From: a virus
Taxonomy: Duplodnaviria > Caudoviricetes
Length of the DNA stretch: 56,547 bases
Direction: 5' to 3' (one strand)
Virus record (IMG/VR): IMGVR_UViG_3300033388_006544
Span: 1-56,547 of that record
The notes under the pieces are model-generated. The model did no database searches, was not told the origin of the DNA, and was given only the letters and a program-made list of their open reading frames with translations. Position numbers and translations under genes: made by a program. Below, piece by piece: positions 7,784 to 35,779 of this stretch. Within the stretch, counting starts at the first letter, position 1; every line of letters begins with the position of its first letter.

Positions 7784-8203
7784 ATGGCAGGCTCAACTAC
7801 TGTTACTTTTGGAAAGATAGACACTCCGTATGCTGGGACTCACGGTCTGGTCAAAGTAGAGATTAACTGGGTTGCAGATAGCGGTGATGGATCTGTGCCG
7901 GACGGCGTGTTCGATGCAACTAAGACTATTCGACTCTTGGGCAGGTATTGCGTGCTCGCTGTCACTGATCCGGGACCTGTTGCTCCTACCGACAATTACG
8001 ATATCACTATTGAAGATGAATATGGGTGCGATATTTTTGGTGGACAATTATCTAACAGGGATGGCGCAAACTCCGAACAAGCACTCCCGAATATAGGCGG
8101 AGCTTATGGTGGAAGACCTTGCGCAGGAGTCCTTACATTTAAACTTGCCAACAACAGTGTCCATTCGGCCACCGGCAAATGCGTTCTCTATTTTGAGATA
8201 TAA
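7784..8203 (+). CDS. Putative virion structural protein
   Basis: Strong RBS; beta-rich sequence; first gene of the fibre cluster. Confidence 0.55.
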   Translation: MAGSTTVTFGKIDTPYAGTHGLVKVEINWVADSGDGSVPDGVFDATKTIRLLGRYCVLAVTDPGPVAPTDNYDITIEDEYGCDIFGGQLSNRDGANSEQALPNIGGAYGGRPCAGVLTFKLANNSVHSATGKCVLYFEI

Positions 8204-8215
8204 GGGGCAAACGAT

Positions 8216-8974
8216 ATGATGCGTATATATGGAGGGCTTGCCCCTGGCGGATCGGCCGAGGCTGAAGATGTAAACTTTACTCCCAGTGGTGGGGTAGCTG
8301 CCACTGATGTGCAAGCTGCTATCGAGGAGCTTGATACCGAGAAGAATCAGCTTGAGAACGACGAGTGGATGACTGGCGATAACTTCGCTGGCACTGGCGT
8401 CATCGATATGTTTAAGGTCAACACCGATGATGAGATTGACTGCGGTGGGACCCTTAAACTGGGACCGATAGAATCTGAGGTTGATAGTGGAGCGATTGTA
8501 TTATTTAATCTTCCGATATCGGCTAGCCCGGCGGCGGGGACAGAACAGTCGGGGGCAATTGAGATCGATGGCGACAACATCTTTAAGTTTTACGCCGAGG
8601 CCGATGGTGCCGGTGGTGTAAAAAACAGGCATGTCGAGCAAGACGGAGATAAAGCCACAACTACCGATGCTACTGTGACCACTTGCGGCGTCGTGACCTT
8701 GGCCGCTTCAACTGTATATCGGATAGAAGCTACTGTCATCGGTAGGGAAACGGATAATAGCAATAGGGCCTTGTATCATCTAGAAGGACTGTTTTATAGG
8801 GCCTCCGGTGGAGCAGTGCAGGAAGGAACGACTACAAGCTTGACCACTATTGAGAGTGATGGGTCGTGGGCCTGTGTTTTTGATATCAGCACTAACGATG
8901 TCCGAGTCAGAGTAACGGGATCAGCAACGACTATTAACTGGTCTTCTGTAATAACTATCAATAAGGTAGGATAA
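8216..8974 (+). CDS. Putative tail fibre/adaptor protein
   Basis: AEDVNFTPSGGVAATDVQAAIEEL fibre-type motif; beta-rich C-terminus. Confidence 0.55.
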   Translation: MMRIYGGLAPGGSAEAEDVNFTPSGGVAATDVQAAIEELDTEKNQLENDEWMTGDNFAGTGVIDMFKVNTDDEIDCGGTLKLGPIESEVDSGAIVLFNLPISASPAAGTEQSGAIEIDGDNIFKFYAEADGAGGVKNRHVEQDGDKATTTDATVTTCGVVTLAASTVYRIEATVIGRETDNSNRALYHLEGLFYRASGGAVQEGTTTSLTTIESDGSWACVFDISTNDVRVRVTGSATTINWSSVITINKVG

Positions 8975-12120: not shown

Positions 12121-12190
12121 TAGGCCGGCCGATGCCGGCCGATGCCGGCCTAGGCCGGCCGATGCCGGCCGATGCCGGCCGATGCCGGCC
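12121..12190. repeat. 7 x 10-bp GC-rich tandem repeat between convergent operons
   Basis: Units TAGGCCGGCC (2) and GATGCCGGCC (5). Confidence 0.95.
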
Positions 12191-12200
12191 GGGGCAAGGG

Positions 12201-13364: not shown

Positions 13365-14183
13365 TTATGTCCTCACATGAATGTCGACGTATTTGTTGCC
13401 ACCCTTCCTTTTTGCATAGAAATCAATCCTGGCCACGCCCGGGTCAATAGGGCTAAACAGCTTCCGACTTGCCCATGTTGAGTAATCACCTTCAAGGTAA
13501 GTGTCCATGAATGAGCCAGTATTGATAAATCTTTTCCGCTGCTTTTCATACTTACCGTTTCTGGAAATTCCTGTCCGACAGGTTTTTGTCTCCCAAATGT
13601 CATGGGTGTGCCCGGCTAAGTAGATGTCAGCATCATGGTCGCTCGCCAGATCTTCCATCCGGTTTACCTTCCCGCCCCTCTTGCGCCCACCGAGGAACTG
13701 ACCGTGTGTACAAAAGATACTGACCAATCTTTTTGTTCCGCCATGGTTAAACCTCAAGACGACATATGCTGGATCGGGAAGAAGAGGTTTCTGCAGGGCC
13801 TCCGCTATAACCTGTGTGGCATCATAGCTGTAATGTTTCTTAACAACCTCCTCGTGGTTACCGCCCATTACGGCGATAATGTTTTCCTTTATAGGATTGA
13901 CCAGTTTTAGGAGTGCTTCTACCTGTTTGTGGTGCAGATTATCCAGATGAACTTTGAACTCATCAGCTATGGAAGTGTTCTCAAACCTGAGATCTTTCGG
14001 ACAGATGCCGTCAATCATGTCTCCCAAGAGAATAACTGAGGCGCCCTTCTCCGCTATCCAGGCCATTGTCTTTTTGGCAAAGTCTTTATCATGATCCACG
14101 TGTCCCATATGAATATCGGATACGGGGATAAGACAAAATGGTTTTTCTGCACTGATCTCCACATCATGTACTATTACTTTCAT
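13365..14183 (-). CDS. Calcineurin-like metallophosphoesterase
   Basis: SDIH, GDMID, GNHE, THG, GHTH motifs in order. Confidence 0.92.
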   Translation of the reverse strand: MKVIVHDVEISAEKPFCLIPVSDIHMGHVDHDKDFAKKTMAWIAEKGASVILLGDMIDGICPKDLRFENTSIADEFKVHLDNLHHKQVEALLKLVNPIKENIIAVMGGNHEEVVKKHYSYDATQVIAEALQKPLLPDPAYVVLRFNHGGTKRLVSIFCTHGQFLGGRKRGGKVNRMEDLASDHDADIYLAGHTHDIWETKTCRTGISRNGKYEKQRKRFINTGSFMDTYLEGDYSTWASRKLFSPIDPGVARIDFYAKRKGGNKYVDIHVRT

Positions 14184-14434
14184 TCACGCACCTCTTCGGT
14201 CCAACGGGTTAAAAAATCTTCTTCGCTGTCATCTCCGCTTACAAGCCAGTCGATCCTTTGAACCATTTCTGCGGCTTGCTTTGCTACATGTGCAGCCTCC
14301 TTAAATCGATAGATTATCTGCGAAGAAAAATGATAGCCAAGGTCCTCATCGTCATTGTTTTTGATTAGTTCGTCCACCTCTGATGCAAGATCTTCTATAC
14401 GATACTGCACATAATCGAAGTGCCCACCACTCAT
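14180..14434 (-). CDS. Conserved phage hypothetical protein (MSGGHFDY...)
   Basis: ATGA overlaps with both neighbours. Confidence 0.7.
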   Translation of the reverse strand: MSGGHFDYVQYRIEDLASEVDELIKNNDDEDLGYHFSSQIIYRFKEAAHVAKQAAEMVQRIDWLVSGDDSEEDFLTRWTEEVRE

Positions 14435-14757
14435 ACCTTTTCCTCCAACCATTCTTTTATTGGGTAAAGTTTAGCGGCCCTATAGCCCGCTGTTTCCTTA
14501 AACTTTTTTTCTTTTAGGAGCTCTTTTTCAGAACGTATCGCTGCCTCAACTTGTTGTGATGTCACAAATCCGGTCTCATGCAATGGTCTCTGTGTGATGA
14601 CTCCTTCTTTGTATGATGGTATCCATCCGTCTTGCGTACGAACCTGGCTACCATCAGGAGATATCTCATAGATTTCGATAAACTCTCTACTGCCTGTATC
14701 AAAATCCAAACGGAGGATATGTTCGTTTTTCTCTATTTTGTTTTTCGACTTCTTCAT
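14431..14757 (-). CDS. Hypothetical protein
   Basis: ATG 14757 is coupled to the stop of the upstream zinc-ribbon gene. Confidence 0.6.
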   Translation of the reverse strand: MKKSKNKIEKNEHILRLDFDTGSREFIEIYEISPDGSQVRTQDGWIPSYKEGVITQRPLHETGFVTSQQVEAAIRSEKELLKEKKFKETAGYRAAKLYPIKEWLEEKV

Positions 14758-14954
14758 TTGTTTACCTTTGAGTATCCATCTTTGGCCCACCCTTTACCCT
14801 TTAAAATAAAAGATGAGGCAGATATGAGTTTTTTTACTGGTCGCACCCTGTCACAGTAAGGACAGTAGAGTATAGTTCTGTTTTTCGTAAGAAATGAATG
14901 GCTAACATCCATAACCTGCCCACATACCTTACATTGATATTCGTAAGTTATGAC
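14754..14954 (-). CDS. FmdB-family zinc-ribbon protein lacking a canonical start codon (not in ORF track)
   Basis: Hand translation VITYEYQCKVCG...CPYCD...KKLISASSFILRGKGWAKDGYS; GGGGAGG RBS upstream. Confidence 0.75.
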   Translation of the reverse strand, partial: VITYEYQCKVCGQVMDVSHSFLTKNRTILYCPYCDRVRPVKKLISASSFILKGKGWAKDGYSKVNK

Positions 14955-15279: not shown

Positions 15280-15304
15280 TTTATCTCTCCGTTTAGACGT
15301 TTAT

Positions 15305-15706
15305 TTAATGGGCCATTACCTTATGTGGAGGTGGCCCGCCTTTTTTATTAACTATATTAACACTTTATGTCTTGTTGGGACACTACTCAATATGGAGTGG
15401 CCTACTACATTTAATAATAATATTAGATAGTTAACCCCGCATATAGACTCTTTGGCCACGGGCCACTGCTTTTTTCTTAAAAGAAAAAATAGTACTGGCC
15501 ATGGCCCAAAATTACCGAGACCCTTATATATAGAGGGTTTCAGCAGGGACAGTGGCATACAAGTAGTGGCCGTAAAGATACTTAACAGACTGTTATATAT
15601 AGAGAACAATTTGGGACACTGGTTTTGAGTAGTGTCCCAGGCATAAAGAACAATAGTAGGTCGCAAGCAAGACCTTAATGAACATAAAGTCTCTATATAT
15701 AAGGAG
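15305..15706. other. Putative replication origin, iteron array A
   Basis: Non-coding region just downstream of the primase; about 10 AGTG(G/T)CC / GG(C/A)CACT-type motifs in both orientations; TATATATAGAG tracts. Confidence 0.65.
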
Positions 15707-15709
15707 CTT

Positions 15710-17296
15710 TTATTCACAACTCGACTCCGCAATCTCCCAGGTTCTTATTCTTGATGAATCAAACCTTTTACGGGGTTCAGTTACTTTAGATCCCAGCTTC
15801 CTCAGAAACTCACACAATAGCGTTCTAGTGAACTTTGCATTCTTAAAGCGTAGTTCTTCCTCCAGGTGCGTCAAAGTGTAGTAGAGGGTGCCCTCATCTA
15901 TCACACAGCTATTTTTGAGCATAGCGGGAAGACTCATATGTTCAGAATCTTTTTGCATGTTCCATTGGGCCATCCACTCACCGAGAATTTCTTTTATGAT
16001 TCCGAGTTCGGATTCTTCTATGGATACCTTTATTTCTTCCGCCGATTCGAGCCAAGTCCTTACCAGATCTAGCCATTTTTCTTGTTTCGGAGGATTAAAA
16101 ACTACCCTGGTAGCCTCCACTATCTTATTTATTGTTCGCCTGCTAGACATAAGGTCGTCTACCATAAGCAGCGTGGTTCGATCCTGTCCAAGGTCCAGAC
16201 TATATTTTGTGCTTCCATCTGGATATTTCATTATGGTAATCTTTTTGACTGCCTCTGCAATGCCGTGAAAATGTTTCTGCTCATGCTCACGGTATATTGA
16301 GTTAACGATTTTTTTGATATCCTTTAAGGAAAGCGGCGGAGTATTGCTCTTATTCCACTCCCCAAGGAAGACTATTGTCTCATCTTTGGTATATTTCTTC
16401 TCTAAATAATTTTCCGAAAGTCGTGTGGCCATGACACTGGTTTCGACTGTGACGATATCTTGTGCTACAAGGGTCTGCACTGCCGTGGCTTGCACTGCTG
16501 GCACCTGTGCTGTCGGTTCTTCGCTCAGTTCTGGTTCTGAGAAATCTGGCATATCGTGTGATGCGATAAATCTGAACTTATCCACCAGATCCAACATATC
16601 TTCTTTGGTATGCCCAATAGCAAACCAATCTGAAACATCGCCTTTATCGGGTAAGCCTGGAAGTTCAACAATACTAACCGACCCAGCTTTCCCGTCCAAA
16701 GATCGAGCTATCTCTAAGGCATGTTTTTTCCCAGGCTTGTCATTGTCTGGTAATATAACGCACTCTCTGTTCTTCAGAGAGTCCGAATATTCCACTATCC
16801 AACTACTCGCCCCGCCTGCATTGGTGGTCGCTACCAACCCCTGAGCTGCGAGTGTAGCGACATCCTTCTCACCCTCACAAATAAATACCTGCTCTGCCAC
16901 TAAAACCTGTGGCAGGTTATACAAGACCCGCCTTGTATCCTTTAGGTTCCAGACCCACCCACCGCTGCCATTTGGTCGGCGTTGCCTGAAAGTTTTGGGT
17001 TCGAAACGGCAGACCTGATATAACAGATTACCTTTTTCGTCCACATAATCATAAGTCTCAACCAATTTCTTTTTTGCTACCATGCTTTTTTCAGTCCACA
17101 AGTTTCTTCTCTTAAGTTCTTCCAGGACAGCAGACTGTGAGCAGCCAGCGTGACAATGGAACAATATCTTTCCATTGGATACGCTAACGGACAAGCTTGA
17201 CTCCCTGTCATCGTGTACAGGGCAGTGGCACTGCCAGGAATTATCTCCGTTGGGTTTGCCTTCAAGGGCACCAACAATTTCCAAAACATTATTCAT
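15710..17296 (-). CDS. DNA primase: Zn finger + TOPRIM + PriCT-like + C-terminal putative DNA-binding domain; no helicase domain
   Basis: CPVHDD...CHAGC; ICEGEKD; LPDND; KGDVSDW; EWNKSNTPPL..IVNSI; no Walker A motif. Confidence 0.88.
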   Translation of the reverse strand: MNNVLEIVGALEGKPNGDNSWQCHCPVHDDRESSLSVSVSNGKILFHCHAGCSQSAVLEELKRRNLWTEKSMVAKKKLVETYDYVDEKGNLLYQVCRFEPKTFRQRRPNGSGGWVWNLKDTRRVLYNLPQVLVAEQVFICEGEKDVATLAAQGLVATTNAGGASSWIVEYSDSLKNRECVILPDNDKPGKKHALEIARSLDGKAGSVSIVELPGLPDKGDVSDWFAIGHTKEDMLDLVDKFRFIASHDMPDFSEPELSEEPTAQVPAVQATAVQTLVAQDIVTVETSVMATRLSENYLEKKYTKDETIVFLGEWNKSNTPPLSLKDIKKIVNSIYREHEQKHFHGIAEAVKKITIMKYPDGSTKYSLDLGQDRTTLLMVDDLMSSRRTINKIVEATRVVFNPPKQEKWLDLVRTWLESAEEIKVSIEESELGIIKEILGEWMAQWNMQKDSEHMSLPAMLKNSCVIDEGTLYYTLTHLEEELRFKNAKFTRTLLCEFLRKLGSKVTEPRKRFDSSRIRTWEIAESSCE

Positions 17297-18324: not shown

Positions 18325-19914
18325 ATGCAAGTTTTTGTAGACAAAAAAAATATTAAACTTTCATTTTCCTACGACAAGGAAAAGGTGGCTAAGTGTCAGT
18401 ATTTTGGGATGCGATGGAGTAAAGTCACTAAACTGTGGTCTGCTCCGAACAACCTGATGAACCGCATTTGCCTTAATAAGCTTTTTTCCGGCTTGCTGCC
18501 ACCAGAACCAGCAGAAGAAATAAAAGAACTCGTTGTTCCCTCCTTCCTTATGGAACATCAGCAGACGGCACTGAGAAAAGCTGCACGGCAGAACAGGAGA
18601 GGCATATACCATGACACAGGCACCGGCAAGACCTGCTCGGCACTAGAGATATATAGACACCATAGAGTAAAAACCCTCGTTATCTGTCCGTTGTCTCTAA
18701 TAGAGGGGGCATGGTTCGAAGAAATTCGCAACAGATATCAAGATATCGACGCAAGTAACCTGTGGGCCGCAAAGAAAAAAAGTCCGTCGGCATTTGACAA
18801 AGCCCTTGAGAAAAATATGGGTATCGTTAACTATGAATCTTTTAGGACCATAGACAAAAGACTCGCCGGTGCTGGCTATAATATGGTTATCCTGGATGAA
18901 TCAGCCAGGATAAGAACGTGGAAAGCAGGGTCAACGGCCGATAAAGTTATTGAATTTTGTGATAACATGAAGTATGTCTATGAATTGTCGGGAGTCCCTG
19001 CACCCAATAGCATGCTGGAATATTGGACACAAATCAGAATACTCGACCCCTTGTTATGGGGCAAGTCGTTCTACAAATTCCGGTTAAAATATTTTTATCC
19101 TGCCGGATATGGTGGATATACCTGGGAGGTTAAGCCCGAATATAAAGAGAAACTAACAACCGATATCCGAACGGTAGCTGAGTATGTGGACAAAAATGAT
19201 GTCTTAGATCTCCCGGATAAGATCGAATCTAAGAGAATATTTCGGCTATCTCCAAAAGAGATGGTCCATTATAAAAATATCAAAAATGATCTTATGACCA
19301 TACTGGAAAACGGAGAACAGATCACCTCTCCCAGCGCTCTGGTGGCCAGAATGAAATTGCGTCAGGTGTCGTCTGGCTTTATTATGGACACGACAACTGC
19401 GGAAGTCAACGGAAAAATAAAGAAGAAAACTGAAATTTTTGATATCGGGAATTCCAAGCTCAACGAGCTTTTAGCCCTGCTCGAAGACATCGGGAAAAAA
19501 CAAGTAATTATCTGGATAGAATTTCAAAAAGAGGCTCTTGTTATCCAGAAAGCTCTAAAAAAGAAAGGGTTAGACAGCGGTATATTGAACGGTACAATAC
19601 CTGAGAATCAAAAACAGATAACGCTCAAAGCTTTCAAGGGCAACGATCTCCAATATATCATCTGCCACCCCAAGTCAGTAGGGTTTGGTCATACCTTGGT
19701 AAATTGCACTGAGAGTATCTATTATAGTATCAGCTACAGCTATGACAACATGAAACAATCCCGAGATCGGATTTACAGAAAGGGGCAGAACAGTAAATGT
19801 TCATACTATTATCTGCTGGCAGCGAAAACGCTAGATTCAGTTATTCTCGATGCCGTGTCAAAGAAAAAAGATACGAGCATGGCTATATTAAATTATCTGA
19901 AAAGCGGAAAATAG
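18325..19914 (+). CDS. SNF2-family (SF2) helicase
   Basis: DTGTGKT, ILDES, LSGVPAPN, GFGHTL, QSRDRIYRKGQ. Confidence 0.92.
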   Translation: MQVFVDKKNIKLSFSYDKEKVAKCQYFGMRWSKVTKLWSAPNNLMNRICLNKLFSGLLPPEPAEEIKELVVPSFLMEHQQTALRKAARQNRRGIYHDTGTGKTCSALEIYRHHRVKTLVICPLSLIEGAWFEEIRNRYQDIDASNLWAAKKKSPSAFDKALEKNMGIVNYESFRTIDKRLAGAGYNMVILDESARIRTWKAGSTADKVIEFCDNMKYVYELSGVPAPNSMLEYWTQIRILDPLLWGKSFYKFRLKYFYPAGYGGYTWEVKPEYKEKLTTDIRTVAEYVDKNDVLDLPDKIESKRIFRLSPKEMVHYKNIKNDLMTILENGEQITSPSALVARMKLRQVSSGFIMDTTTAEVNGKIKKKTEIFDIGNSKLNELLALLEDIGKKQVIIWIEFQKEALVIQKALKKKGLDSGILNGTIPENQKQITLKAFKGNDLQYIICHPKSVGFGHTLVNCTESIYYSISYSYDNMKQSRDRIYRKGQNSKCSYYYLLAAKTLDSVILDAVSKKKDTSMAILNYLKSGK

Positions 19915-23116: not shown

Positions 23117-24643
23117 ATGCCTAAAATATATAAAGTGATTGGTCCTCCTGGAACTGGTAAGACAGCTTATCTGTTGCGCCAAATAGAAAAAGCGTGCGAC
23201 AAGTATTTTCCTAAGGACCTCGGTGTCGTCTCTTATACAGTGGCCTCAGTCGCTGAGGCCCGCATGAGAGTAGAGAAAAAGCTGAATGTTACTTTCAAAG
23301 ATATTCCAAATATTAGGACCATTCATAGCCATTGTTTCAAGCTTCTTGGTACAAAAAAAGATGATGTAATGGAAACGGCCAAAAACATCCGAGAATTCAA
23401 TGAAATGTACCCGGCCTTTGCAATATCAGGTGGAGGAAAAAACGAAGACGGACAAAGAGAATACGAGGGAAACGATAAGGTTTTTAACCAGATGCAAATA
23501 CTGCGCAGCCAGCTTGTACCTAAAAACGAGTGGCCGGCAGAATGTGTAGAGTTCGGCAAAGTCTGGTCTATGTATATGTTAAATGAGGGCAAAGTCGATT
23601 TTAATGGTATGTTGGAGGAGTGTATCCGTAGAGAGCTCTCGCCAGAGATTAAGATCCTTATGGTCGACGAGGCACAAGATCTCCCGGCGCTACAGACTGC
23701 ACTGATTCGGCAATGGGGTGAGCAGTGCGACTCTGTATTGTGGGCCGGTGATGCAAATCAGTGCGTGTTTCGGTTTGCCGGTGCTGACCCCAACAGTTTT
23801 ATTAATCTCGAGGCGGATAAAGTCATACCGCTTACCCAATCCTATCGACTGTCACAGGCGGTACTCAGTAAGTCGGTCGAGATTATTCGGCAGGCAAACA
23901 TTAAAGAACTGGTTGACTTTGAGTCAACATTAGAGTATGGTAAGGGTCAGGTTATAAACGTCCAGCAACCGGACTTGTCACTGCCAGGCACACATATGAT
24001 CTTGTGCCGTTGCAACTACCAGGTTAAGCCGTATATTGCAGCACTAAGAAAACAAAATATTCCCTTTTGTAACCAATATCGAAAAGAAGATAAAACTTGG
24101 AATCCCCTGGATCTTGATGGTGCTAAATCAATCAAGATATACCTGAGGATGCTAAAGGGCGAAGAGCTTAACATTTATGAGGTCAAGCAAATGGCAAAAA
24201 ACTGTGTAGCCAAGCTTTGCCTGGCACGTGGATCCAAAAAGAAAATTGAAAGTTTACCGCTCACAGAAAAAAAGACTTATGAATTTTTTGGTTTACTCGG
24301 CATGGGTTTCCTGGGAACATTTTTGGAAAAGCAGGGTAAAATCTCGGATTATTTTAAGGTAAAATCTGAGAGTAAAGACCTTGTGTACCACTTAGCCGCA
24401 AACAATCCAGATCAATTTTTTGAGACCCCGAAAGTGTGTGTAGGGACTTACCATTCAGCAAAAGGAGGAGAGGCTGACCATGTTTGGCTAGACGCCGGGA
24501 TAACAGCGAGAATAAAAAAAGCTATGCAGAAGGATAGTGATGCGTGGGACGACGAGTGTCGTTGTGCTTACGTGGCTGTCACTAGGGCGAGAAAAACTGT
24601 TGGTATCATGCACAGCAGAGGATACCGCAACCCGTTTTTATAG
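23117..24643 (+). CDS. UvrD-like SF1 helicase
   Basis: GPPGTGKT, RTIHS, VDEAQD, GDANQ, QSYR, TYHSAKGGEAD, YVAVTRAR. Confidence 0.93.
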   Translation: MPKIYKVIGPPGTGKTAYLLRQIEKACDKYFPKDLGVVSYTVASVAEARMRVEKKLNVTFKDIPNIRTIHSHCFKLLGTKKDDVMETAKNIREFNEMYPAFAISGGGKNEDGQREYEGNDKVFNQMQILRSQLVPKNEWPAECVEFGKVWSMYMLNEGKVDFNGMLEECIRRELSPEIKILMVDEAQDLPALQTALIRQWGEQCDSVLWAGDANQCVFRFAGADPNSFINLEADKVIPLTQSYRLSQAVLSKSVEIIRQANIKELVDFESTLEYGKGQVINVQQPDLSLPGTHMILCRCNYQVKPYIAALRKQNIPFCNQYRKEDKTWNPLDLDGAKSIKIYLRMLKGEELNIYEVKQMAKNCVAKLCLARGSKKKIESLPLTEKKTYEFFGLLGMGFLGTFLEKQGKISDYFKVKSESKDLVYHLAANNPDQFFETPKVCVGTYHSAKGGEADHVWLDAGITARIKKAMQKDSDAWDDECRCAYVAVTRARKTVGIMHSRGYRNPFL

Positions 24644-30774: not shown

Positions 30775-31134
30775 GTGAAAATGAAAAAGGCTGATAGAGT
30801 AAAGATATGGGAAAAGTATGACAAACATTGTGCTTACTGCGGCAAGCTCCTAGACTACCCGGATATGCAAGTAGATCATATTATCCCTCGGAGGGGTGGC
30901 AGATGTCCATCGGCCGAAAATATGGAAAATATGAACCCTAGCTGTAGACAATGTAATCACTACAAGCGGAGTCACTCGCTAAAGAGATTCCGACAGCTTG
31001 TTCGTACTTTAGATAAGAGAGTTAAAGCTCACTATATTAATAAGGTGGCTGTCGATTATGGCATTATAATAGAGGCTAAGCCCTGGGATGGTGTATTTTA
31101 TTTCGAGAGATGTCTCAAGATTAAGGGGAATTGA
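30775..31134 (+). CDS. HNH endonuclease
   Basis: HCAYCG...VDHIIP...NMNPSCRQCNHYK. Confidence 0.92.
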   Translation: MKMKKADRVKIWEKYDKHCAYCGKLLDYPDMQVDHIIPRRGGRCPSAENMENMNPSCRQCNHYKRSHSLKRFRQLVRTLDKRVKAHYINKVAVDYGIIIEAKPWDGVFYFERCLKIKGN

Positions 31135-31747: not shown

Positions 31748-32044
31748 TTACCAACCAGCCAAACTTGCGTTAGATTTTCCTTGTTTATCTTCCTTTATCT
31801 GACAATCCCTTTTAGCGACTTCAAAAGCGCGATGGACCTCGCTCTCATAACCTTGGGCGCGTGCTTGCATATCCGCCAGTTCGCTGCCAACACCTAAGAC
31901 TATATAAAATTCTTGTTTTTCTGCGTAGGTACATTTATTACGTATCCATCCTATTAATTCTTTCTCATGGCCAGCATCGATTCCGTCAAAAAAAGCTTGC
32001 CGTGCAGCTAAATTATATTTTTGTTTTAGGCTTGCAGTGTCCAT
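31748..32044 (-). CDS. Hypothetical protein under promoter copy 3
   Basis: AAGGAG RBS before MDTASLKQKY. Confidence 0.7.
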   Translation of the reverse strand: MDTASLKQKYNLAARQAFFDGIDAGHEKELIGWIRNKCTYAEKQEFYIVLGVGSELADMQARAQGYESEVHRAFEVAKRDCQIKEDKQGKSNASLAGW

Positions 32045-32082
32045 AGTCTTTCTCCTTAAGATTTTGTGTTTTGTGTTTAGTT

Positions 32083-32130
32083 TTTTTTTGTCTGTTAGAA
32101 ACAATATAAATCTTCCTAAAAAATAGTCAA
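32083..32130 (-). promoter_or_regulatory. Repeated promoter cassette, copy 3 (leftward)
   Basis: Reverse strand TTGACT-N16-TATATT followed by GTTTCTAACAGACAAAAA. Confidence 0.8.
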
Positions 32131-32208
32131 GCCCTTTTGAGCATTTTTTTTGATATTTTTTAAAAAAAGTTTTTACGGTGGGCTGTTTCTGAAGAATAAA
32201 TAATACAA

Positions 32209-32229
32209 CTGGGGACAATTTGTCCCCAG
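32209..32229. promoter_or_regulatory. Perfect 10-bp inverted repeat (operator-like)
   Basis: CTGGGGACAA-T-TTGTCCCCAG. Confidence 0.5.
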
Positions 32230-32314
32230 ATGGTCGATTTATGGTCGATTTATGGTTGGTTTATGGTTGGTTTATGGTTGGTTTATGGTTGGTTTATGGT
32301 TGGTTTATGGTTGG
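32230..32314. repeat. 7.7 x 11-bp tandem repeat
   Basis: ATGGTCGATTT x2, then ATGGTTGGTTT x5 plus a partial unit. Confidence 0.95.
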
Positions 32315-32871
32315 AGATCAGATGTGGCAATTTCCCAGGTGCGGATTCGCACGCTGCCAAACCTTTTAACGGGTTCAGTTCTTTTTGCTTTCATTTTACG
32401 TAAAACCCCACAAAGAAAGGTTCTGGTAATCTTTACATCTTGTAAGAATAATTTCTCTTTGAGATTGGAAAGTTTGAAAAACATTATGCCAGATTTAATA
32501 ACGCAGCTATCGTTTATCCTGACAAAAGTGTCAAGTTTTTCCGAACCTGACCTACTGTTCCACTGTGTTAGCCATTCGGATAACAACATTGTTGTTATAT
32601 CAAGCTCGGGGAATGCCGATATTTTTTTCTCTTCAGCACATTCCAGTAATCCCCTTATTAAATTAACCCAGCCTTTTTGATTGGGGGAAACATACCATTT
32701 GCCAGTAGCCTCTATGATTGATCCCATTGAAAGCCTCGCAGACATTAGCTGCCCCACGGTAACAACAGCCCGCCCGCCATTTGTTAAATGCAAAGCGTAT
32801 CCTGTGCTGCCATCAGTGTATTTCAAAATAACTATTTTCTCTATCACGTTTTCTGCTAATTCTGTTTTCAT
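32305..32871 (-). CDS. Stand-alone paralog of the primase C-terminal domain (188 aa)
   Basis: AAGGAG RBS; aligns end to end with the last ~180 aa of 15710..17296 (KYxDGST, LMS, EAT, QWN, SCVI, TRT.LC..LRK, TEP.KRF.S.RIRTWEIA). Confidence 0.88.
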   Translation of the reverse strand: MKTELAENVIEKIVILKYTDGSTGYALHLTNGGRAVVTVGQLMSARLSMGSIIEATGKWYVSPNQKGWVNLIRGLLECAEEKKISAFPELDITTMLLSEWLTQWNSRSGSEKLDTFVRINDSCVIKSGIMFFKLSNLKEKLFLQDVKITRTFLCGVLRKMKAKRTEPVKRFGSVRIRTWEIATSDLQP

Positions 32872-33094
32872 GTTTTTTCTCCTTTTATATGATACAGAAT
32901 ACCCTTTACGTGACCCGATATCCATCAATCAATTTAAAACGTGTTCCACTGGACAGGCTTAGACTAGAAAGACTAAGGGAGTGGACATGAACACTGCTAA
33001 AACTACAATGTGTCGGTGATGTACTGACGAACAATCACTTATGTGATATTTAGCCCCAAAAGTATAAAATACCCTATATCCTTAGTGACAGTAA

Positions 33095-33640
33095 GAGGGC
33101 CGGAGGTTCTGAGCAGTGGCCGGTTTTAGACAGAAAAAGTATTAATTATATTAGATACTTGCAACTTCTTGCCATATCGTTTTTAGCTCCGGCCGAACGA
33201 CTTCGTTAATAATATCAGATAGCTATACCCTCATGAGGGTACTTTGGGCCACGGCCACTGCTCTTAAACTATTTTATTTTTCTTGGCAGTGGCCGGTGGC
33301 CCAGGCTCCAAAAAATCGCTGAAACTCTTATATATAGAGGGTTTCAGGCTGGGCCGGAGGTATTTGAGCAGTGGCCGGAAGAATATGTAGATCCTTTATT
33401 CATGAGGGTTTGTAGCTATTTCTATTTGGGCCACTACTATTTAGCAGTGGCCGGTTTAAAGAACTCTCTTATATATAGGAGATTATTTTCGTAAATTATA
33501 AATATCAACCTCCGTCCGTAAAACTACTACAAGTCGCAAGCAAGACTTCTTTATTGTAAAAACTCTCTATATATAAGGGGGATTTTTATAACGGGTTTAT
33601 TCCTGAGCTGGGACACTACCATCTTGAGCTTGGGCCAAGC
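33095..33640. other. Second origin-like iteron array B
   Basis: (A/G)GCAGTGGCCGG x4, GGGCCAC/GGGACAC motifs, and blocks identical to array A. Confidence 0.65.
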
Positions 33641-33874: not shown

Positions 33875-34042
33875 ATGCCATTAAAATCAGGTAAGAAAAA
33901 TATTGGTAGGAACATCGCAGAAATGATAAAAGCTGGTCACCCGAGGGATCAGGCTATAGCCGCTGCATTTAGCAAAGCGGGGCGCAGCAAGGCTCGCAGA
34001 ACTCTAGGGAAGAAACAAAATAAAAAGAAAGTAGCTCTCTAA
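33875..34042 (+). CDS. Small basic protein typical upstream of terminases
   Basis: [35 protein letters not shown]; AAGGAGG RBS. Confidence 0.8.
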
Positions 34043-34144: not shown

Positions 34145-35779
34145 ATGAATATGCCAATAAAGCTATCAGACGAGGCAGTAAACGCTCTCGTCTCTACCAT
34201 CCTTTCCCGGACTCCGCCTAAGACAATAAACACTTTTTTAGGCGAGGATAAATACATTAAGTATCAGGATGATCCTATAGGATTTATCGAGGTGGTGTTG
34301 GGTGAGACTCTGACCGATGATCTTCGGGCGATGGTCGAGAGTGTGAGAGATAATCAAGTAACTGTTGCGGTCTCATCGAATGGTACAGGCAAAACCTGGG
34401 CAGCGGCCCGTGTAGCTGTTTGGTTCTATCTTTGTTTCGACGATACCAAGGTCTTTACTGCCGCCGCTCCGCCTTACGACAACCTTAAAAATCTCTTGTG
34501 GGGTGAGATTGGTAGTGTGATAAGGGATCACCCTCAACTTTTTACTGGTCACACAGTAACCTCAATGGACGTGAGGCGAGGCCCCGAGGACTATATGATC
34601 GGCGTTACCATCCCTAGCGCCGGAAGCGACCAAGAAAAAGAAGCTAAGTTTTCGGGCAAGCATCAGAAACATATGTTTTTTGGCTTTGACGAGGGCGATG
34701 CTATTCCGGGGTCAGTGTACAGAGGTACCGAGTCCTGTATGTCTGGTGGCTTTGTCCGTCTCCTTATTATGTTCAACCCTCGTCATGCCGCAGGCCCGGT
34801 GTATCGGATGATCCGTGACAAAACAGCTAACATCGTGCACCTGTCAGCGTTTCGGCATCCAAACGTCATTACAGGGGAAGATAAGATCCCCGGTGCTGTG
34901 AGCAGAGGAGTAACCGTAAGACGCATTAATGAGTGGGCCAGGCCTCTTAGAGATGGCGACAAGGCCAGTGAGCGGAGTGTTTTTACTCTTCCCGACTACT
35001 TAGTGGGTAAAATAGGTTACTCACAGGCCGGATTGCAATATCCGCCGTTGGTGGCCGGAGAGTACAAGATCCTTAATCCATGTTTTTCGTACATGGTCCT
35101 CGGCCAGTATCCTGCGCAGGGCACCGACCAGCTAATTTCGGAAGAGTGGATATCAGCGGCCAGATCAAGATATGATATATATGTCGCTCAGTATGGTGAG
35201 ACACCACCCGCCGGAGCTACCGGAGTTATGGGGCTGGATGTCGCTGAGATGGGCGATGACAGTAATGTTGCGGTGGGACGATATGGAGGTTATCTCACGC
35301 CGTTTAGCTCATGGAGCGGCGTTGATCCAATAGAGACCGGGGATCGTGCGGTTGCGTGGTATCAAACTCACAAGGGAATAACGAGGGCGAATATCGACGG
35401 GACAGGCGTCGGAGCTGGGGTAGCTCCTCACATGCAGCGGACCAACGGCATCGTCAGTACGAGCATAAAAGTTGCAGCAAGAGCAACGATCACGACAGAG
35501 ATTGGTGACTTTAAAATATTAAGAGATGAGCTGCTATGGAGGGTCCGGGAGTGGTTAAGGACTGATCAGGGTGCAATGCTGCCTCCAGATGAGGACTTAG
35601 ATGAGGAGCTTAAAGCCTTAACTTACTGTACTGACTCAGGATTAGTTGAGGTAATCGAGACGTCTAAAATGAAGAAATTACTTAGCAGGAGTCCCGATCA
35701 TCTGATGTCCTTAGCTATGACCTTCGCAAATACTGATGGATTCTTCTCGGGCTGCGAGTTTAAAGCCTTTCCAGATTAG
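34145..35779 (+). CDS. terL: Terminase large subunit
   Basis: SSNGTGKT, FGFDEG, FNP, GLDVAEMGDD, IDGTGVG, RSPDHLMSL. Confidence 0.92.
   Translation: MNMPIKLSDEAVNALVSTILSRTPPKTINTFLGEDKYIKYQDDPIGFIEVVLGETLTDDLRAMVESVRDNQVTVAVSSNGTGKTWAAARVAVWFYLCFDDTKVFTAAAPPYDNLKNLLWGEIGSVIRDHPQLFTGHTVTSMDVRRGPEDYMIGVTIPSAGSDQEKEAKFSGKHQKHMFFGFDEGDAIPGSVYRGTESCMSGGFVRLLIMFNPRHAAGPVYRMIRDKTANIVHLSAFRHPNVITGEDKIPGAVSRGVTVRRINEWARPLRDGDKASERSVFTLPDYLVGKIGYSQAGLQYPPLVAGEYKILNPCFSYMVLGQYPAQGTDQLISEEWISAARSRYDIYVAQYGETPPAGATGVMGLDVAEMGDDSNVAVGRYGGYLTPFSSWSGVDPIETGDRAVAWYQTHKGITRANIDGTGVGAGVAPHMQRTNGIVSTSIKVAARATITTEIGDFKILRDELLWRVREWLRTDQGAMLPPDEDLDEELKALTYCTDSGLVEVIETSKMKKLLSRSPDHLMSLAMTFANTDGFFSGCEFKAFPD

Follow-up and report, generated by a model that had tools for sequence, protein, structure and literature searches.

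A free-standing paralogue of a phage primase tail encoded beside an iteron array, a candidate modulator of origin use

The window, by which we mean the whole stretch of DNA that was analyzed, is an IMG/VR virus record, complete at 56,547 bp and flanked by direct terminal repeats (114 bp as measured). The features that bear on the free-standing copy of the primase tail are listed below by coordinates and strand.

15320..15709, no strand: array A, seven iteron sites, beginning directly after the primase stop (motif count and synteny)
15710..17296, minus strand: primase gene (P0005), 528 aa, with Zn-ribbon, TOPRIM, PriCT_1 and tail (Pfam/PHROG)
15710..16261, minus strand: primase tail domain, residues ~346 to 528, paralogue of the free gene (blastp and alignment)
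32209..32229, minus strand: terminator-like hairpin 3' of the free gene, with a 9-bp stem, 6 GC pairs and a T-rich tail (pattern match)
32230..32314, no strand: 7.7 copies of an 11-nt tandem repeat, ATGGTTGGTTT, that extend over the 3' end of the free gene and its stop codon (repeat search)
32305..32871, minus strand: free-standing primase-tail (CTD) gene (P0001), 188 aa, stop codon included in the coordinates (ORF, RBS and homologue starts)
32879..32884, minus strand: ribosome-binding site AAGGAG, spaced 7 nt from the free-gene ATG (read from the sequence)
33097..33620, no strand: array B, eight iteron sites of the form [AG]GTG[GT]CC, four of which are the exact 11-mer GCAGTGGCCGG (motif count)
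33875..34042, plus strand: small basic ORF (MPLKSGKK...) that opens the rightward packaging module (phrog_2423, unknown function)
34145..35779, plus strand: terminase large subunit, TerL (phrog_2, E 5.6e-23)

The free gene runs leftward from an ATG at 32871 to a stop codon at 32305 to 32307. An alternative TTG start at 32928 would extend the product to 207 aa, but five homologues begin at the position equivalent to the ATG instead. A blastp search of the product against every stop-to-stop window ORF of at least 60 aa aligned residues 9 to 187 with primase residues 350 to 529 (43.9% identity over 180 aa; E 6.25e-47), and the runner-up match within the window had an E value of 0.76. The same pair gave 45% identity and an E value of 8.7e-46 in a separate search of the window's own record. 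These values, and the AAGGAG sequence at 7 nt, bore out a reading of this locus made from sequence only, which had described a 188-aa ORF with its own RBS and 40 to 45% identity to the end of the primase. That reading had also described the ORF as devoid of a Zn finger and TOPRIM, and this was confirmed: no Pfam or PHROG family was matched, and hence there was no match to a Zn-ribbon, TOPRIM or PriCT_1. The ORF accordingly falls outside the DnaG-type primases (CHC2 Zn-ribbon plus TOPRIM) and outside PriCT_1 (PF08708), the copied region beginning after the PriCT_1 domain of the primase. It also falls outside the Rep families (Rep_3-like, WH1-WH2), with no Pfam match and chance-level results from the PDB profile search.

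The parental primase was assigned to PHROG 6088, 'DNA primase' (E 2.7e-36). Its PriCT_1 domain at residues 290 to 338 scored 26.8 bits, above the cut-off; TOPRIM was located at about residues 137 to 224 (Toprim_2 at 138 to 217, 22.0 bits against a cut-off of 22.1), and Zn_ribbon_DnaG at residues 16 to 55 scored 21 bits, below the cut-off. A profile search with the tail module of approximately 180 aa detected 33 clusters at E <= 1e-3. The free ORF, which was the first row of profiles A2 and A6, matched the tail profile throughout its hallmark elements, namely the YPDG hairpin, W68 and R150...R177-x-W179. Ten long profile matches were scanned for other domains. PriCT_1 preceded the tail in eight of them, and the catalytic part was Zn-ribbon/Toprim in two (P0007 and P0012), Prim-Pol in four (P0008, P0014, P0017 and P0026), AEP-TOTE in two (P0018 and P0025) and unrecognized in two (P0016 and P0021). 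The occurrence of the tail behind both DnaG-type and AEP-type primases indicated a portable module common to two unrelated primase types. Searches of the ESM Atlas by structure retrieved the C-termini of AEP-TOTE, PriCT_1 and Prim-Pol proteins together with free viral proteins of 120 to 226 aa, and searches by features retrieved unnamed viral clusters only. Judged from these searches, the tail is a module of approximately 180 aa without a Pfam or PHROG family, and yet it occurs widely among phage primases, in two catalytic types that are unrelated.

Relatives of the window phage were sought in several collections. TerL had at most 42% identity to Salinibacter phage proteins and no record in the phage collection covered at least 80% of the primase, and therefore the phage has no close cultured relative. 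Neither a tblastn search of 50,697 phage records with the free ORF nor a viral contig scan with the free protein as a single query produced a match. Profile A2 matched 150 stretches of the genome contigs, none of which was a relative, and that collection yielded no sign of a prophage copy. A search for longer homologues returned 0 of 464 candidates and missed even the window's own primase, and hence was uninformative. A word-index search yielded P0002, the one free homologue of full length (188 aa, 62% identity), and P0003, a fragment of a primase. Other free-standing forms with their own Met start included P0010, P0011, P0013, P0020 and P0029, and free-standing tail genes were found on three DNA loci, L004, L005 and L006. 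The ATGGTTGGTTT type of tandem repeat at the 3' end of the free gene was absent from L004 and L005.

The fold of the tail was examined with AF2 models of the free protein. A model of the whole protein, built from a 5-row alignment, consisted of two sub-domains and had a pLDDT of 78.7 and a pTM of 0.50. None of its 585 PDB matches reached E <= 1e-3, and the list was mixed. Comparison with BFVD gave four matches at this threshold, of which three were phage primases of 572 to 611 aa, among them that of Dinoroseobacter phage R5C (TMq 0.65), and one was an unnamed 215-aa protein. Because of the pTM of 0.50 and the lack of a significant PDB match, residues 85 to 188 were modeled alone with a deeper, 37-row alignment, which raised the pLDDT to 90.5 and the pTM to 0.82. 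The elements of this model follow the order H-H-b-b-H-H-b-b-b and end in a three-stranded wing. None of its 270 PDB matches had an E value of <= 1e-3; the top matches were seven TcpK chains (E 0.14 to 0.79; TMq 0.53 to 0.58; prob up to 0.92), followed by CooA, AraR, Pex, PadR, RTP, HSF1, Cch and an ORC subunit, all of which we take to be winged-helix DNA binders. A sequence profile searched against the PDB produced only three hits, at the chance level (E 1.1 to 1.5), and the P4 alpha origin-binding domain (OBD) was absent among the listed PDB matches of both the whole model and the sub-domain. The order of elements in the confident model fits that of a winged helix (H1-b1-H2-H3-b2-wing-b3), with a best E value of 0.14 and a TMq of 0.57. 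A winged-helix fold, for which the sequence-only reading had proposed a structural search, was thus suggested by the order of elements and by the kind of protein at the top of the list, but no individual match was significant. The C-terminal half of the tail is best described as having a predicted winged-helix-like topology, a call based on the topology, a TM of approximately 0.57 and the types of match. The N-terminal sub-domain of the tail is alpha/beta and carries a conserved hairpin with an invariant YPDG.

The distribution of charge was tabulated for 37 of 39 rows, P0012 and P0037 being left out as their segments were shorter than 30 aa. The net charge of the C-terminal segment was positive in all 37 members of the family, and the helix preceding this basic segment was acidic in 36 of 37. 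The eight free-standing forms were the most basic, at +7 to +13, and eight primase-group rows of the same lineage, two of them fragments, ranged from +1 to +5. The wing has conserved basic positions, as do the two ends of the putative recognition helix. A complex prediction for the primase tail plus the free tail gave a score of 0.03, the mark being 0.32, and is taken as evidence in neither direction.

Both arrays have a similar composition. Array A contains an inverted iteron pair at 15614/15631 and TATATATA boxes at 15523 to 15535 and 15691 to 15706, and array B contains an inverted pair at 33429/33446 and palindromic TATATATA boxes at 33327 to 33339 and 33563 to 33577; the inverted pairs are 17 to 19 bp apart. 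With 4.07 copies of the heptamer AGTGGCC expected, the window had 14, a count reached in 0 of 100 shuffles, and 9 of the 14 copies fell in two stretches, at 15396 to 15571 (3 copies) and 33115 to 33452 (6 copies). The exact GCAGTGGCCGG sequence was found four times in the genome, always in array B (33113, 33286, 33368 and 33444), and array A had mixed iteron flanks and three AGTGTCC sites. Array B lies between the free gene, which points leftward, and the small basic ORF and TerL, which point rightward. The noncoding regions at approximately 15280 to 15712 and 33090 to 33640 are collinear and have the same orientation on the plus strand, but the order on that strand is array-then-tail at A and tail-then-array at B. 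As the arrays themselves are collinear and the order of array and tail is opposed, the second locus is not a simple block copy of the first, in agreement with the earlier description of array A as following the primase stop and array B as lying upstream of the free gene. The arrays are candidate replication origins, although the position of array B could equally suit a pac site or a late promoter region. GC skew was considered as an origin marker in the window and rejected, as the skew tracks gene orientation only.

An iteron array was present directly upstream of the free gene at all four loci with upstream DNA (the window, L004, L005 and L006). There were nine [AG]GTG[GT]CC sites in each of L004 and L006 and ten in L005, and TATATATA palindromes accompanied all three of these arrays. 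Beyond the array, L004 and L006 resemble the window in having the small basic ORF and TerL in divergent orientation. The sequence AGTGGAC was evaluated as a shared operator and rejected as too weak; it was found at -56 to -138 in L004, L005 and L006 and at -115 in the window, where its orientation was reversed.

Two complete relatives were compared with the window phage. Genome G001 (58,827 bp) is collinear with the window by tblastx, encodes a primase with 75% identity and also has the small basic ORF; its array A wraps the contig ends, and its array B is located at 14454 to 14831, ahead of TerL. Genome G002 (62,915 bp) encodes a Prim-Pol/PriCT_1 primase with the same tail, and the stop codon of this gene is followed directly by an array with the same TATATATA palindromes and a differing iteron core, AGTGGGTC. 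This 8-mer had 14 sites in G002, a few of which were doubled by the terminal repeat, and these sites formed two clusters only (control, 1 + 1), the second spanning the contig ends, with TerL on one side and an HNH gene on the other. A free copy of the tail was found in neither genome, the single tail match in G001 being the primase itself and G002 likewise having a single match. Two arrays were therefore present in each of the three complete genomes examined, one just after the primase tail and the other ahead of the terminase genes, and the free gene was present only in the window. The iteron core was AGTGGCC(C) in the window and G001 and AGTGGGTC in G002, and within each genome the core was shared by both arrays. 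A more distant genome, G003, had a 1.2-kb ORF-poor stretch after the primase with direct and inverted 15- to 16-mers. Overall, an array or repeat-rich noncoding stretch followed the end of the primase tail at four of five loci (the window, G001, G002 and G003); the primase locus of phage R5C had no array, and a helicase gene follows directly there, overlapping the primase stop. The arrangement of an array after the tail was observed with DnaG-type and AEP-type catalytic domains alike. Coupling of arrays to the tail-coding end across catalytic types, together with a genome-specific iteron common to both arrays, is what would be expected if the tail were the iteron reader.

These comparisons qualified several aspects of the sequence-only reading. 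A difference in iteron consensus between the arrays was real in the window, where GCAGTGGCCGG is confined to array B, but was not stable in the relatives. The combination of a primase, a CTD-only gene and two arrays, which that reading had suggested be searched for, recurred in so far as a free gene was located beside an array in L004 to L006, but G001 and G002 were without the free copy. As both arrays exist in G001 and G002 in the absence of the free gene, array B does not depend on the free protein and presumably functions without it, and any role of the free gene must be accessory. Coevolution of the free protein with its own array found no support in that form, but would fit in one respect, the divergence of the arrays only in the window: the two arrays shared 188 bp at 100% identity in G001 and 126 bp at 90% in G002, whereas the best stretch in the window was 69 bp at 77%. 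Divergence confined to the window genome hints at sub-functionalization, or a division of labor between two readers, in this comparison of three genomes. The stretch with 100% identity in G001 could alternatively have originated through assembly or recent gene conversion.

The descent of the free copy was investigated in a tree of 39 of 41 sequences, P0015 and P0036 being left out as they covered fewer than 120 profile positions. Six free-standing sequences, including that of the window, formed one clade with an SH-aLRT value of 99; with P0013 and P0020, this clade expanded to eight with a value of 93. The clade adjoins the primase tails of the same phage group. The dN/dS ratio of the free gene was 0.19 to 0.34 in six of six pairs, with dS above 1 (saturated) in four, and was 0.34 over 57 codons for the closest pair (L004/L006). 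Ratios for the primase tail were 0.03 and 0.05 in two pairs; dS was saturated in the third, window versus G001, and the ratio was not computable. The free protein of the window had 55% identity to that of the L004/L006 lineage, in comparison to 70 to 74% for TerL (window versus L006 or G001) and 81 to 83% for the primase tail (window versus G001 and L003). On the evidence of the tree and the codon comparisons, the free copy was shown to have a single origin, to be under purifying selection and to be optional, and by these identities it is evolving faster than both the primase tail and TerL.

Several known systems resemble this arrangement in part. The iterons of phage P4 lie in two separate regions, ori and crr, and the small P4 protein Cnr limits copy number via the origin-binding domain of the alpha protein. 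Yeo et al. reportedly proposed in 2002 that Cnr is a winged-helix protein. The accessible part of one report describes how P4 gp-alpha binds the origin through its C-terminal winged helix (PMC4889955). As described there, gp-alpha is a DnaG-type primase protein, like the window primase, and has a C-terminal winged helix that binds iterons (PMC4889955), the tail of the window primase being winged-helix-like by model. However, an SF3 helicase separates the primase and OBD of alpha, whereas the window primase is without one and has PriCT_1 before the tail. The window tail also differs from the P4 OBD in its length of approximately 180 aa with an extra N-terminal sub-domain, and Cnr is no evident sequence paralogue of alpha, whereas the free protein is 44% identical to the primase tail. 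Helicase-less initiators that combine primase, PriCT-1 and HTH or winged-helix domains exist and are common in mobile elements, and a role of the C-terminal winged helix in origin recognition has been proposed, according to the accessible text (PMC5862659). ColE2 Rep, RepE/RepS and PrimHYQ share with the window primase the order of primase, PriCT-1 and C-terminal DNA-binding domain, the last of these putative in the window primase, with no helicase; they differ in being AEP enzymes of plasmids or integrated elements, with no free-standing paralogue of the DNA-binding end described in the portions of the sources available, and the window tail, unlike these ColE2 Rep-type initiators, matches no Pfam HTH or winged-helix family.

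The initiator RepR of plasmid pIGRK provides a further parallel. Its isoform RepR' consists of the C-terminal DNA-binding/dimerizing part only, binds both origin and operator and is a negative regulator of RepR, as stated in the accessible part of the report (PMC6854812). The likeness lies in the existence of the C-terminal end of an initiator as a separate protein (PMC6854812). RepR' nevertheless comes, in that account, from an in-frame start codon within the initiator gene and has the same sequence as the end of the initiator, whereas the free gene is separate, lies approximately 15 kb from the primase, is 44% identical and has its own history. TcpK of the pCW3 relaxosome (PDB 5vfx/5vfy) was the best structural match (TMq 0.56 to 0.58 over approximately 100 columns) and is a small accessory wHTH protein solved on repeated oriT sites, but it serves conjugation rather than replication, and the E value of 0.14 and identity of 9 to 10% give no evidence of common descent. 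A literature search that covered few subscription journals found no description of a separately encoded paralogue of a primase C-terminal domain beside iterons. The suggestion that the locus represents an undescribed system was too strong, given the close functional precedents set by P4 alpha/Cnr and N-truncated Rep isoforms; the locus is a new variation on these themes, none of which involves a diverged copy of an initiator's end encoded by a gene of its own.

We propose that the free gene is a catalytically empty, separately transcribed paralogue of the primase's iteron-recognition tail and that it modulates origin use, a reading for which we judge the prospects to be evenly balanced. The primase tail would dock the primase on the iterons, which would serve as origins, and the free copy would bind the same iterons or the diverged iterons of array B while being unable to prime. 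Alternatively, the free copy might mix with primase tails. By either route the firing of origins would be modulated, most likely through a brake or a timing switch, and the free copy may also act on the divergent promoters within array B, one of which is that of the free gene. Should the tail prove to be the origin-recognition part, it would account for the way in which phage primases without a helicase locate their start sites, and phage origins would become predictable from an array beside the tail-coding end. A diverged, separate copy of the DNA-recognition end of an initiator would be the counterpart, at the level of genes, of the truncated isoforms that plasmids use.

An adaptor role in protein-protein contacts would explain the module differently, with the tail recruiting a helicase (a phage SF1/SF2 enzyme or host DnaB) or another replisome part, the free copy acting as a loader or competitor and something else binding the arrays. 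The window phage codes for helicases of the SNF2 and UvrD types, and among the window ORFs scanned neither a polymerase nor a DnaB/SF3/SF4 helicase was detected; phage R5C has the same trio, with its helicase gene overlapping the primase stop. The main activity could reside in the N-terminal sub-domain, which is conserved and has an invariant YPDG, and the fold matches of the tail in the PDB were not significant. An adaptor nevertheless seems doubtful, as it does not account for a C-terminal sub-domain that is basic in all members and has the winged-helix order, or for the coupling of the tail-coding end to arrays in two primase types and of the free gene to an array at every locus with upstream DNA. 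A role as a transcription factor is rather improbable. The iterons would then be operators, the free copy (and, in relatives, the primase tail) would repress or activate the divergent promoters of array B, those of its own gene and of the packaging/late operon, and any control of replication would be secondary. Such a role would suit the location of array B between divergent transcription units, the resemblance of the inverted iteron pairs to dimer operators, the terminator-like hairpin that marks the free gene as a separate unit and the autoregulation by both RepR and RepR' described in the accessible part of the pIGRK report (PMC6854812). However, array A, at the 3' end of the primase within one leftward row of genes, would be an odd place for an operator, and the 7 to 9 sites and AT-rich palindromes of each array exceed a typical operator. 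In addition, a weak scan, whose consensus may not be that of the host, found no sigma-70-like leftward promoter between 32872 and 33100.

It is a very remote possibility that the free gene has no function and is decaying, as the remnant of a partial duplication or of what was once a second primase gene. Its absence from two complete relatives is compatible with decay, as is a divergence from the L004/L006 lineage (55% identity against 70% for TerL) that exceeds the pace of the primase tail. The reading frame is intact, however, an RBS is present and the start is shared with five homologues, and basic residues are conserved in the putative DNA-contact elements. The sequence-only reading had named a dN/dS near 1 and absence from relatives as the marks of a relic; ratios of 0.19 to 0.34 in every pair, the conserved start and membership of a clade of six, or of eight with weaker support, indicated that the gene is not one, its absence from G001 and G002 notwithstanding.

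A bolder form of the proposed modulation of origin use, which we consider improbable, is that array B has been captured by the free tail and is now its dedicated set of sites. The free protein might then be a catalytically dead blocker or licenser of origins, either switching the genome away from initiation by the primase and into late transcription and packaging at the neighboring terminase module or jamming the iteron origins of co-infecting relatives. Capture was suggested by the four copies of GCAGTGGCCGG found only in array B and by the divergence of the arrays in the window genome alone. If this were the case, the free gene would be a fast-evolving, optional competition gene in a variable slot; in G001, the slot beside array B is occupied by an unrelated 200-aa gene.

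The slot adjoining array B, the iteron array between the free gene and TerL, is a variable accessory slot. In G001, a complete relative that has both arrays and no free gene, this slot was occupied by an unrelated 200-aa gene on the minus strand (positions 13748-14350 of the G001 locus, L059). Its product consisted of two internal repeats (…EDGKTIDFDGV.IPVEVDYKELRKRI…DIYRLAVEFNLL, twice), and a Pfam search with this protein gave no match above the cut-off.

Palindromic boxes of type CCTTATATATAAGG or CTCTATATATAGAG were detected in both arrays of the window, at 15523-15535, 15691-15706, 33327-33339 and 33563-33577. They were also located in three loci that carry a free-gene homologue and an upstream array (L004, L005 and L006), in L059 and in loci L088 and L092. 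All arrays of all genomes examined had 2 to 4 such boxes, independent of the iteron core. They may serve as unwinding elements, as promoters or as sites at which a second factor acts.

Neither a DNA polymerase nor a helicase of the DnaB, SF3 or SF4 type was detected in a scan of 18 larger ORFs of the window, where only the following turned up:

13365-14183, Mre11-like phosphoesterase
18325-19914, SNF2-type helicase
23117-24643, UvrD-type helicase

The same trio of primase, SF2 and SF1 proteins is present in Dinoroseobacter phage R5C, which has a structurally similar primase.

At the 3' end of the free gene, the stop codon lay within an overlap with an 11-nt tandem repeat, ATGGTTGGTTT (32230-32314; 7.7 copies, 97% matches), which was directly followed on the minus strand by a terminator-like hairpin (32209-32229). 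This repeat was absent after the free-gene homologues of the two loci compared, L004 and L005. Just past the hairpin, a promoter-like site on the minus strand, TTGACT-16-TATATT at 32130, preceded the next leftward ORF (31748-32218 frame).

Near the packaging module, an HNH endonuclease gene was detected at 30775-31134 (phrog_2118, E 1.7e-31), and its homologue in G002, another complete relative with both arrays and no free gene, directly adjoined the second array. The G002 TerL (minus strand, L093 873-3539, equivalent to G002 59872-62538) had 888 aa, compared to 544 aa in the window, with a large insertion after the N-terminal ATPase motif that, judged by eye, resembles an intein or the insert of a homing endonuclease.

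Outside the arrays, two iteron-like half-sites, AGTGTCC and GGCCACC, formed an isolated inverted pair at 8156-8173, in the gap ahead of the gene at 8216. This pair could be a single operator with the same reader as the iterons. A 10-nt tandem repeat, GCCGGCCGAT (12124-12191, 6.8 copies), had units similar to the iteron flank (GCATCGGCCGG on the minus strand).
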